From a virus (Duplodnaviria; Caudoviricetes), in IMG/VR virus record IMGVR_UViG_3300034521_000267, positions 1 through 27,443 of that record: 27,443 nt of DNA. One strand, given 5' to 3'. Position 1 is the stretch's first letter, and each line of letters starts with the position of its first letter. Under the pieces are notes generated by a model that made no database searches, was not told the origin of the DNA, and saw only the letters and a program-made list of their open reading frames with translations. Positions 8,221 through 15,361 of the stretch are shown in pieces. The translations under genes were made by a program, and so were the position numbers.

Positions 8221-9087
8221 TCAGATTGAACTCAGCCTGCAGATTGCGTTTGCCTGCTTGATCCTCAGGATACCTGCAGAGTACACACGACCGTAGAGAT
8301 CTCCTGTGTCAGGGTGCTTGGAGTCCACACCATGCTCGGTCCTGAAGTCAGATGTCAGGTAGAAGTCAACGTATGGTTCTCCAACTGCAGCAGTGGGTGC
8401 TATGAATCCCGTACCAGCTGTGAGGGCATTGCTGGAGAAGATACCTCCACCGTTGAGCATGTCAAGGATATCTTGCTTTTCCCTCAGACCGTTGGCGTTA
8501 CGGACAGACATGAGCTGCTGATACTGGGTGCTTGCCAGGCACAGGTTGAATGGCAGGCTGTCCACTGGGATGCCATCGTCATCCATGAGCTCATATGCAC
8601 CGGCGAGGGCTGTGGTTGCTTTCCCGAATGTAGCAAAGTCCTGGGTCGTGGAGTAGTCGTTTCCTGCGCCTTGGTAGAGGCCATTGATGTCATAGTTGGT
8701 GCCATCGTTGGTAACTCCCATGATGATTGCAGTGTCCTCTGCCTTTGCTGCCTTGTATGCGGCTGAGAGTGCAGATGCGGCATCGACATCAATATTCTTG
8801 GTCTGCCAGCTTTCATATATGCGTCTGTCAACGAGGTAGTCCTTCCAGTAGACTGGGACCTTGGAGTTCGTGAGAGCCACTTCGATCTTGTCGACATTTC
8901 CATCACGGAAGCCATATGATACCAGACCGTCACTGACGTCGGTGACCTTGCCCCAATCTACTGAGGTGATGCCGAAGCCCTTTGCCGGTGTGACATATAC
9001 GAGCTTTCTTCCTTTCAGGACGTTCCTAAGCGGGTCAACCAGCTTGGTGTCCATGTCTTTTGAGAATGCTGCGAGTGCGTTTGTCAT
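8221..9087 (-). CDS. Major capsid protein, HK97 fold, encapsulin (linocin M18)-like
   Basis: LRNVLKGRKLV...VPVYWKDYLVDRR...DAASALSAAYKAAKAEDTAIIMG resembles family 1 encapsulins. Follows the protease and decoration genes. ATG at 9087 lies 5 nt after GAGGTGA. Confidence 0.85.
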   Translation of the reverse strand: MTNALAAFSKDMDTKLVDPLRNVLKGRKLVYVTPAKGFGITSVDWGKVTDVSDGLVSYGFRDGNVDKIEVALTNSKVPVYWKDYLVDRRIYESWQTKNIDVDAASALSAAYKAAKAEDTAIIMGVTNDGTNYDINGLYQGAGNDYSTTQDFATFGKATTALAGAYELMDDDGIPVDSLPFNLCLASTQYQQLMSVRNANGLREKQDILDMLNGGGIFSSNALTAGTGFIAPTAAVGEPYVDFYLTSDFRTEHGVDSKHPDTGDLYGRVYSAGILRIKQANAICRLSSI

Positions 9088-9097
9088 ATTTTTCACC

Positions 9098-10560: not shown

Positions 10561-10596
10561 GTGTATACTACTAGTATAAAAACTTTATATGGAAAA
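10561..10596 (-). promoter_or_regulatory. Late promoter copy 1 (TATA plus palindrome TATACTA-C-TAGTATA)
   Basis: 35/36 identical to 13544-13579. TTTATA box on the - strand about 30 nt upstream of the protease ATG, implying a near-leaderless transcript. Confidence 0.8.
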
Positions 10597-13381: not shown

Positions 13382-13543
13382 GATTATTTCTCCTTTGACA
13401 CATGTTCGCCGCACCACTCGTCATAAGGGACTACAGGAAAACCAACTTTCGCAACCGGTGCACTACGTCTGCAGTGACCAAATGTGACAGCCAGGGGCTT
13501 GAAAAAAGTGCATGTCGAACACGTGTCGTTCATGCGTGTAGGG

Positions 13544-13579
13544 GTGTATACTACTAGTATAAAAAGTTTATATGGAAAA
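13544..13579. promoter_or_regulatory. Late promoter copy 2, potentially bidirectional
   Basis: GTGTATACTACTAGTATAAAAAGTTTATATGGAAAA has TATA-like boxes on both strands. The - strand faces the portal operon and the + strand faces the mini-CRISPR. Confidence 0.8.
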
Positions 13580-13597
13580 CAATCGACGCAACATTAT

Positions 13598-13827
13598 CAC
13601 GCTGAAGTAAGAAGACCACCGTTTTTAAACGGTGGATGAAGTATCTAATGCAAAAATCATATTCAAAAGCAAGATCCACTAAAACAAGGATTGAAACTCA
13701 GAAGCTCAGGACAGTTCGTGTAGTTCTGAAGTGATTCAAAAGCAAGATCCACTAAAACAAGGATTGAAACGTCGTTGGATTCGATGATGAAGCAGGAAGC
13801 CACCATATGAATAGGGTGGTAGTTCAC
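13598..13827 (+). mobile_element. Non-autonomous IS200/IS605-like element (no tnpA/tnpB) carrying a mini-CRISPR
   Basis: Left-end hairpin CCACCGTTT-TT-AAACGGTGG (13616-13635) followed by ATGAA. Right end GAAGCAGGAAG-CCACC...GGTGG-TAGTTCAC ends in TCAC. Left boundary uncertain (after TTAT 13597 or TCAC 13600). Confidence 0.7.
13661..13770 (+). CRISPR. Mini-CRISPR array: two identical 37-nt repeats and one 36-nt spacer
   Basis: ATTCAAAAGCAAGATCCACTAAAACAAGGATTGAAAC at 13661-13697 and 13734-13770. Spacer TCAGAAGCTCAGGACAGTTCGTGTAGTTCTGAAGTG. The repeat ends in ATTGAAAC and resembles Methanosarcina repeats. Confidence 0.93.
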
Positions 13828-14033
13828 ACATCCCTCTCTTTTTGTTTCTCCATGATCTTAGTTGCAATTTCCTCTGCAAGTACATCACTCTTATGCTTGA
13901 TGCTTTCGTTATCCGAATAATACTTTGCAAGGTAATCAATGGCTCTGCTCTTGCTGCAGCTCTGCTCTTTCATGACACGGTGCACTATTGAAAGTGTTTC
14001 CCCGCTGAGGGTAAGGCATTGTTTTGATCTCAT
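13824..14033 (-). CDS. Small ribbon-helix-helix-like DNA-binding protein
   Basis: QCLTLSGETLSIVHRVMKEQSCSKSRAIDYL fits a beta-helix-helix pattern. Confidence 0.6.
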   Translation of the reverse strand: MRSKQCLTLSGETLSIVHRVMKEQSCSKSRAIDYLAKYYSDNESIKHKSDVLAEEIATKIMEKQKERDV

Positions 14034-14035
14034 GA

Positions 14036-15361
14036 CTACCTCGCTTTGGTTCTGATAAGTTTTGATAAGTCCATTTTCTGCGGTCCAAACTTTGATTTAC
14101 TGAGCTCCGATATGGCCCATACAAGAGCATCCACCCTATCCGGACTCTTGCATTCACCGGGCACCCACTCACACATTTGATCCTCAAGTGCAGGGAAAGA
14201 CCCGACGTGATGACATTTCCCTTGTTCATACAGAGCGCTGATAGGTTCAGCCCTGACCTGTTTCCCTCTGCTGGCCCGGACAGACCTGTAAGATACTAGA
14301 GGGTCAATTGTCCGAAGAGTATACTCCACCAGCTCGCCGCCGTTATTGACCTCACCAATGACACTGTCAGCAGAATGCTTGTAATAGGCAGCAATGACTT
14401 CTTGGGCCCATTTCTTCGGAGTTGTATGGGTCGTATAATCGCCCAGGACATAGTAGTGTTGCTTCTCATCCATTCCAGCGACAACGATCCCTGTATCGTC
14501 TGCGGATGATGAGGATGTGACTGCAGGATCCACTCCCACGACTATCCTGACCAGCTCTGGAGTTTTCGTTACCCTGTTATCCTCGATCACATCTCTGGTC
14601 CAGAGGGCTTCCGGATTGTCGTCAAGGATCTCTGCGTTGAGCTCCTGTCTCCCCAATCGGGTTCCTTCGTATCTACTGATGATCACGTCGATGAAAGCTG
14701 GTGCCAGGTTGGACAGGTTCTCGTAGGTGGACCCTTTGGTCACATGAGTGCTGGAATCGTTCAGGATGTTCTTGACAAGTGGAATGGGTCTTGGGGTTGT
14801 GGTGACGGCCACCCTCGGATCATCTCCAAGTCTCAGGCCAAACTGCAGCATGTCCCAGGTTTTTTCTGGATACTTCCAGGCAGCTATCTCATCACACCAT
14901 GCAGTGTCACATTGAGGACCTCTCAGTCTGTCCGGCTCTTCTGCAGAGAACAGAAGGGCCATTGCACCGCTTGGCCATGTCAACCTTCTCTTTGATGGCT
15001 CATAGACAGGCTCATTCCAAGGAGGACATACTGAAAGGATCCCGGAATCTCCCTCTACCATAGTATCCCTGGCATCTGCAGATGTTGGAGCTACAAGGTG
15101 AATACGTCTGGCTTTACCGGACTCTACTCTTTCCCGGATCCATTCAGACCCCACTCGAGTTTTTCCCCATCCTCTGCCCGCACATACTAACCAGTATCGC
15201 CAGTTGCCTTCCGGAGCTAGTTGGTTAGGCCTGGCCCAGAACTTCCAGTCATACTCCAGCTGGAGGATCTCCTCATCCGTGAGCTCACTGAGGATTTTGT
15301 TCCTTTCCGATTCTGGCAGCGATGCTATTGATTCGGCTAGTGATGCGTTCTCTTGCTTCAG
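14036..15361 (-). CDS. terL: Terminase large subunit (441 aa from a CTG start)
   Basis: Walker A AGRGWGKT lies upstream of the annotated GTG (15154). Also LRGPQ..AWCDE (Walker B) and VGVDPA...SPDRVDALVWA nuclease motifs. The frame opens at GAGGTGA-ACATAT-CTG. Confidence 0.93.
   Translation of the reverse strand: MKQENASLAESIASLPESERNKILSELTDEEILQLEYDWKFWARPNQLAPEGNWRYWLVCAGRGWGKTRVGSEWIRERVESGKARRIHLVAPTSADARDTMVEGDSGILSVCPPWNEPVYEPSKRRLTWPSGAMALLFSAEEPDRLRGPQCDTAWCDEIAAWKYPEKTWDMLQFGLRLGDDPRVAVTTTPRPIPLVKNILNDSSTHVTKGSTYENLSNLAPAFIDVIISRYEGTRLGRQELNAEILDDNPEALWTRDVIEDNRVTKTPELVRIVVGVDPAVTSSSSADDTGIVVAGMDEKQHYYVLGDYTTHTTPKKWAQEVIAAYYKHSADSVIGEVNNGGELVEYTLRTIDPLVSYRSVRASRGKQVRAEPISALYEQGKCHHVGSFPALEDQMCEWVPGECKSPDRVDALVWAISELSKSKFGPQKMDLSKLIRTKAR

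Follow-up and report, generated by a model that had tools for sequence, protein, structure and literature searches.

A one-spacer type I-B CRISPR unit within a gene-less IS605 remnant of an archaeal virus: a candidate guide against competing viruses

The genome of a tailed archaeal virus analysed here (IMG/VR record IMGVR_UViG_3300034521_000267, all 27,443 nt of which are referred to below as the window) carries at positions 13598-13827 a 230-bp deletion derivative of an IS605 element that holds a single CRISPR repeat-spacer-repeat unit. We consider it probable that this one-spacer type I-B unit in a gene-less Methanosarcinaceae IS605 remnant acts as a fixed guide against competing viruses, borrowing the Cas proteins of the host. 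The proposed anti-competitor guide function is well supported by sequence, and use of the unit by host Cas proteins is plausible, because the repeat is that of a host type I-B system and the target of the spacer is viral and PAM-flanked. Viral mini-arrays and gene-less IS605 derivatives are each already known, but we found no report of a CRISPR unit inside gene-less IS605 ends in the literature searched, a search that had most subscription journals outside its scope. The locus offers a compact case of an IS605 shell with a non-coding immune payload and an identified viral target.

The carrier virus and its host

The window is the genome of a tailed archaeal virus and encodes terminase, an HK97-type head protein, tail tube, tape measure, primase-polymerase and a RecT/Bet protein. 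The 187 nt at its two ends share 99% identity, suggesting a circular assembly; IMG/VR classes the record as linear and 42% complete. The large terminase gene (14036-15154, minus strand; Pfam Terminase_6N/6C) lies close to the element and shows no intein match. No Cas family was detected among the 37 main ORFs scanned with NCBIfam (of 125 mechanical ORFs), and neither TnpA nor TnpB has a match anywhere in the virus record. We infer a methanogen of the Methanosarcinaceae as host, because of the CRISPR repeat described below and because a host spacer of genome G119 (L158) agrees at 31 of 36 positions with the beginning of the major capsid gene (window 9055-9090), this target being preceded by CAT and not by TTA. 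The tape-measure gene contains a 200-nt direct repeat (2219-2649; 84% identity, spacing 231).

An IS605 shell with an identified parent

The left end of the element (13598-13640, plus strand) is identical at 43 of 43 positions to copies in Methanosalsum natronophilum (L061, L062), and the right portion (13771-13827, plus strand), which comprises the 3' end of tnpB and the IS605 right end, agrees at 55 of 57 positions with L061 and L064, both differences falling in the hairpin loop. An exact 23-nt left-end scan of GTDB returned five loci, all in M. natronophilum AME2: three full tnpA/tnpB elements (L061, L062, L064) of 1651-1652 bp with divergently oriented genes, and two lone left ends. Profile searches confirmed the TnpA and TnpB families of this parent, which is the kind of autonomous relative that the first-pass annotation of the locus had presupposed; a search of a phage collection gave weak chance matches only. 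Related ends flank tnpA/tnpB on plasmids of M. hollandica and Calditerrivibrio. At a further locus (L132), a 354-aa ORF lies behind an IS605-family left end.

The window retains positions 1-43 and 492-508 and the last 57 nt of the parent; approximately 1.5 kb have been lost, among them tnpA, almost the whole of tnpB and the greater part of the likely omega-RNA scaffold. The CRISPR unit now occupies this position, as the first-pass annotation had proposed, although its description of the unit as the sole cargo holds only apart from about 20 bp of the start of tnpB (13641-13660, plus strand; codons Y-L-M-Q-K-S), which are fused to the left end, tnpA being deleted. The N-terminus of the parental TnpB reads MFLTYRYLMQKSYK, and the remnant matches positions 492-508 of the L062 element at 17 of 17 bases (E 2e-5 within the parent), the bases flanking this 17-bp match being present in other members of the IS605 family.

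Both ends have the layout of IS605 termini. The guide tetramers AAGA (13612-13615) and GAAG (13796-13799) each lie directly 5' of a stem (hairpins at 13616-13635 and 13800-13819), and the element ends with the cleavage motif TCAC (13824-13827). In IS608 the guide tetramer 5' of the stem pairs with the cleavage motif, and the pairs AAGA/TTAT and GAAG/TCAC fit this positional rule. Guide-motif pairing is supported in general by the accessible part of PMC10055086. The AME2 element has TTTAT/TTCAC motifs, as described there for ISGst2. The annotation had placed the tetramers, the TCAC end and the left hairpin correctly; the perfect 9-bp stem it described for the latter would leave a loop of only 2 nt and folds as 8 bp with a 4-nt loop. 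Compared with shuffled sequences, 6 of 200 were as stable as the left hairpin and 82 of 200 as stable as the right one. With folding energies this weak, the case for IS605 ancestry is carried by homology and by the empty site; on sequence comparison, both ends descend from a tnpA/tnpB element.

The element also agrees with the description of PATEs and other non-autonomous IS200/IS605 derivatives (PMC3119063; minimal ISGst, PMC10055086; both as far as the available text goes): it has near-terminal palindromes, no terminal inverted repeats and no target duplication, it is too short for a transposase and encodes none, its ends are homologous to those of an autonomous tnpA/tnpB element, and filled and empty sites exist. 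In contrast to PATEs, it carries a foreign CRISPR unit, is known from one locus, and has a fifth target base that is off-consensus. In linking a CRISPR array with an IS200/IS605 locus, the element recalls the TnpB-to-Cas12 associations (PMC10691335, accessible part), but the outcome here is the reverse, tnpB having been lost and the array being that of a class 1 system, which is therefore unable to guide an element-encoded nuclease. The same source, in the part available, treats cargo in IS200/IS605 elements as rare and lists protein genes.

Empty sites and distribution

A sister virus (L003), whose terminase is 94% identical, does not have the 230-bp segment. The hairpins are absent from such array-less sisters, and with both ends traced to a tnpA/tnpB element the result is the opposite of what the first-pass annotation had named as its refutation. 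Of the two left boundaries that had been offered, TTAT (13594-13597, plus strand, outside the element) is correct, so that the element starts at 13598; the empty allele shows TTAT in the same register. The alternative, TCAC at 13597-13600, is ruled out by the empty site and by the parent copies. The insertion interrupted a stop codon: a 69-aa viral ORF (13824-14033, minus strand), without a family match in profile searches, has equal length and the same register in the sister (L003/L174), where it ends ERVA-stop with a TAA that is split after TTAT in the window; here it ends ERDV-stop, the TGA being supplied by the TCAC end of the element. There is no target duplication.

The metagenome evidence consists of contigs of eight out of twelve runs, in which rare forms drop out and parts without coverage are uninformative. 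The identical empty junction recurs in contigs of four of the eight runs (X1, X4, X5, X6) and X7 shows a loose end that fits it, these runs coming from three studies; the filled form was found in contigs of X1, X2 and X3 (in the last its left side only), all from one study. In X1 the empty allele is deeper than the filled one (109 vs 43), and it is the only form in contigs of X4-X7, so that no advantage of the cassette is visible. The empty alleles are divergent lineages, not isogenic with the filled form, and none represents a clean excision. Left of TTAT, empty and filled forms have 10 and 16 nt, respectively, and in X1 and X4 15 of 143 bases differ on the right, while positions 13400-13577 differ at 0-1 bases only. 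Such a divergent patch within near-identical sequence looks like recombination between near-identical viruses, and homologous exchange among sister viruses, rather than TnpA, may now be the main route by which the cassette is spread or lost.

The CRISPR unit and the target of its spacer

The unit consists of two identical 37-nt repeats (13661-13697 and 13734-13770, plus strand) around a 36-nt spacer (13698-13733, plus strand), which bears out the repeat-spacer-repeat between two hairpins noticed at first pass; both repeats score as Rfam CRISPR-DR7 (E 6e-11). The repeat is of the Methanosarcinaceae type I-B and, among 177 genomes of this family, is identical in one (G066) and within one mismatch in ten. 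G066 has 31 repeat copies at no more than one mismatch, all those listed being exact, and one of its arrays directly follows ORFs of the cas8b type, cas7, cas5, cas3, cas6b, cas1, cas2 and cas4, of which Cas6b and Cas8 were assigned by Pfam and the rest by position and by their resemblance to genes of G001, whose I-B operon is confirmed. Repeat depth is high in runs that contain the virus or its empty sister (X2, 434; X4, 1625). A donor array with this spacer was not seen in 284 genomes, with few candidates scored per genome. In run X4, a 621-bp contig (record 23, aligning to window 13659-13763) ends in this repeat, a different spacer and a second repeat, preceded by 515 unaligned bases; it could be the start of a host array or another mini-array.

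The spacer matches a provirus in genome G096 (G096:C1:1202894-1202929; same record as L153/G215) at 32 of 36 positions, with TTA directly 5' of the target. This target was found with a 26-nt spacer pattern that matched one of 177 family genomes. A 32/36 match is expected by chance at about 1e-6; 30 shuffled-spacer controls reached at best 21-24 of 36 positions, and the best match in the carrier outside the array is 22/36. In the accessible part of PMC8482600, TTA is the PAM given for Methanosarcina I-B systems and also for those tabulated repeats that come closest to this one, which is itself not in that table. Only one of 355 host spacers matched the viral loci examined with up to eight mismatches, a small target set, so that few random spacers would be expected to show a match of this kind. 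The true source of the spacer is probably a relative of the G096 provirus. An exact protospacer was not found in metagenome contigs (0 matches in a protospacer-only scan), nor a better one in viral contigs, nor any protospacer-bearing contig among the contigs of the eight runs; the 3' 17-mer of the spacer retrieved only the same virus, and among 38 virus records the spacer core occurs in provirus G215 only. Matches of spacer 18-mers at ten other viral-contig loci extend to only 22-26 of 36 positions and are taken as chance.

The target provirus is a relative of the carrier (head, tail and portal-position proteins 31-66% identical), and the genome in which it resides has a repeat of its own that is three mismatches away. 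The protospacer lies inside an intein (Pfam E 2e-14; residues 164-522) of the provirus terminase (L150 625-3024, plus strand; G096:C1:1202018-1204546). The carrier terminase has no intein, and a tblastn comparison gave no match to the terminase of the rival at E<=1e-4. In another frame, the intein is overprinted by a 322-aa zinc-ribbon/HNH-like ORF (L150 1229-2197, plus strand; Pfam E 0.0025, below cut-off) with 49 homologues. An out-of-frame HNH has been described for a non-intein insert (PMC11855218, accessible part); our literature search turned up no paper on the exact layout of an intein overprinted by an out-of-frame HNH-like ORF. The peptides encoded by spacer and target disagree at one of 11 residues when read in the HNH-like frame and at two of 11 in the terminase frame.

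These data bear on the view that the unit is a neutral scar, in which a decayed insertion sequence once took up a piece of a host array that is neither expressed nor selected. The unit is confined to one viral lineage and one study among the runs examined, the insertion is harmless to the neighbouring gene, the unit has no leader, empty sisters are common, and deletions of the IS605 core are frequent in archaea according to the available text of PMC3119063. However, a scar would hardly be expected to preserve two full identical repeats around a lone spacer that matches a related virus next to the right PAM and spares the carrier, and the rarity of matches among host spacers, with the reservation that the target set was small, speaks in the same direction. 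We therefore regard a neutral scar as improbable and prefer the reading as a fixed guide, the points against which are the four mismatches (one of them at seed position 1), the match to a single provirus with no exact protospacer among the metagenome contigs scanned, a PAM table that does not contain the exact repeat, the lack of a host-type leader and the absence of a visible advantage.

Mini-arrays have been described on other viruses (PMC6858448, PMC11656645, 10.1101/2023.03.03.530964; all in their accessible parts). The unit resembles those of SPV1 and SPV2 (PMC6858448; PMC11656645) in having one spacer, host-identical repeats, no cas genes and an intergenic position, and, by the account in PMC6858448, in a spacer directed at a related virus that spares the carrier. 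It differs from them in lacking a host-type leader and in its flanks of IS605 ends and tnpB remnants; moreover, it stands in a methanogen type I-B setting, and its function is a prediction. A leader with promoter is a feature of the SPV type that the wording available from PMC11656645 does not make a requirement.

Predicted expression and processing

No host-type leader precedes the array: the 63 nt upstream of repeat 1 are IS-derived, and a viral TATA-like box lies further up. (The multiple alignment was used for the leader and the right junction only, as the short tnpB piece was misplaced in it.) This box (13567-13574, plus strand) lies 31 nt upstream of the element within a 36-nt promoter-like motif (13544-13579) that has TATA-like boxes on both strands and recurs at 10561-10596 with 35 of 36 positions identical. 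The motif occurs twice in the virus and in its sister L174 and also in other contigs of several runs, and is likely the late promoter of this virus group. A promoter scan found none, but it used bacterial models, and archaeal promoters are outside its cover. A T-rich run 3' of the right-end hairpin (13839-13847, plus strand) might serve as terminator; a plus-strand terminator scan did not flag it.

Transcription would start near the left end from the plus-strand TATA-like box, and cleavage of the transcript by host Cas6b would yield one full crRNA, predicted to consist of the 8-nt handle ATTGAAAC and the spacer. A I-B Cascade loaded with this crRNA would direct Cas3 against intein-bearing relatives that infect the same cell, the intein being that of their terminase, and the carrier would be spared through its own intein-less terminase. 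These steps of processing and interference are those of established type I-B biology. The spacer itself folds as a hairpin (13698-13729; equalled in stability by 8 of 200 shuffles), and this could make crRNA loading less efficient.

Two other uses of the RNA can be imagined, which together we judge very improbable. Repeat 2 and the right end might form an anti-CRISPR-like decoy RNA, given that Cas6, by cutting in repeat 2, would produce an RNA in which IS sequence and a hairpin come after the handle; yet a complete and targeted spacer is present, and the IS-derived second "spacer" is preceded in the parent by TGA, not TTA. Alternatively, the right end might be a TnpB guide directed against empty sisters, as it is nearly intact and abuts viral sequence in the way omega-RNA guides do (PMC10691335, accessible part). 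Against this, only 57 nt of the 3' region of the parent are left, so that the 3' part alone of the likely omega-RNA scaffold is kept and the outer-helix 5' strand of the parent is replaced by the repeat; a complete scaffold is absent from the right end, the window gave no such Rfam match, and empty sisters have GTTAT, not TTTAT. The right-end region of the parent (L061 4182-4222) shows a weak Rfam RAGATH-18 match (E 0.008, below gathering).

Mobility of the element

The intact IS605 ends are also compatible with continued mobility. Host TnpA might excise the 230-nt single strand and insert it at TT(T)AT, moving a working guide among viruses and hosts. Both ends, the hairpins and the guide tetramers are intact, and gene-less relatives point to movement of such elements: a 125-bp cargo-less element that shares the left end and has a right end forming a complete palindrome is identical at two viral TTTAT sites (L133, L137; both on the 33.8-kb contig OBLN01000084.1), one of these sites being seen also in virus L056 (1987-2111) just downstream of the terminase gene, as in the window, and G066 has a 194-bp cargo-less fusion of left and right ends (L148). 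Close TnpA homologues occur in four of five genomes tested, among them G060, G093 and, as partial copies at the ends of contigs, G066, with 85-95% identity and the same or a one-mismatch repeat. Run X10 contains both the repeat and ends of the parent type. In G066, the left ends at L139, L142, L145 and L148 are enlarged in the hairpin region by about 50 bp of inserted sequence.

On the other side, no second CRISPR-bearing copy was found (exact-match scans, 0 of 5 loci, 0 of 6 loci and 0 of 177 genomes, and further sequence searches), nor any other left-end contig in X1-X4; of the predictions made at first pass, the same ends do recur elsewhere, as the 125-bp and 194-bp derivatives, but around no other spacer, and neither a circle junction joining the two ends nor a clean excision allele appeared among contigs of the eight runs. 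One locus (L167) matched a pattern of repeat end followed by right end, but it has no second repeat and is judged a chance match. Since the scans need exact matches and contigs lose rare forms, these absences leave room for mobility. The target pentamer is ATTAT in the window and GTTAT in the empty alleles, in contrast to TTTAT at 19 of 20 distinct family left-end sites (duplicates taken once; L132, with its flank cut, left out), and a related TnpA needed the cognate motif for excision (PMC10055086, accessible part). The off-consensus ATTAT reflects either a later mutation or a near-cognate insertion. Taken together, a unit still moved by TnpA appears unlikely to us, and a fixed guide remains the preferred reading. 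Should TnpA nevertheless move the cassette, guides could pass between viruses without gene homology.

Origin of the capture

How viral mini-CRISPR arrays originate is not explained in the accessible parts of the literature consulted. With both flanks derived from a known parent, the capture junctions can here be read to the base, and joining by Cas1-Cas2 can be tested directly against annealing. We propose that repair of a broken IS took up the CRISPR unit from a host array, an event that may have occurred in the virus or, ahead of the insertion, in a host. At the 3' junction the last base of repeat 2 directly abuts the IS sequence, and the 5' junction is flush or overlaps by no more than 2 nt. 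By a hand calculation, random breaks in the 73-nt period would produce such junctions in about 6 of 10,000 cases, which points to an enzyme cutting at repeat borders; Cas1-Cas2 might thus have joined the free IS ends to the borders of the repeats. However, immediately ahead of the right junction the parent reads GGAATTGA, a sequence similar to the GGATTGA of the repeat, and the virus encodes a single-strand annealing protein of the RecT/Bet type, which makes short-homology repair equally likely, and we rate the two routes about even.

A wider proposal would be that the element is a TnpA-mobilisable, 230-nt single-stranded guide cassette for class 1 systems of the host, able to arm any virus or replicon with TT(T)AT, and that its flush junctions record the joining by Cas1-Cas2 of broken mobile DNA to a host array as an origin route for viral mini-arrays and solitary repeats; we put this forward as a doubtful but not far-fetched extension. 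The notion that the two flanks are themselves host-array spacers acquired from an IS was set aside, the right flank being preceded by TGA and not by TTA in the parent. In run X5, a low-depth contig (record 12, aligning to window 13603-13644) has a left-end match that continues for four bases into the tnpB remnant and so hints weakly at a tnpA-less fusion that exists apart from the CRISPR unit.
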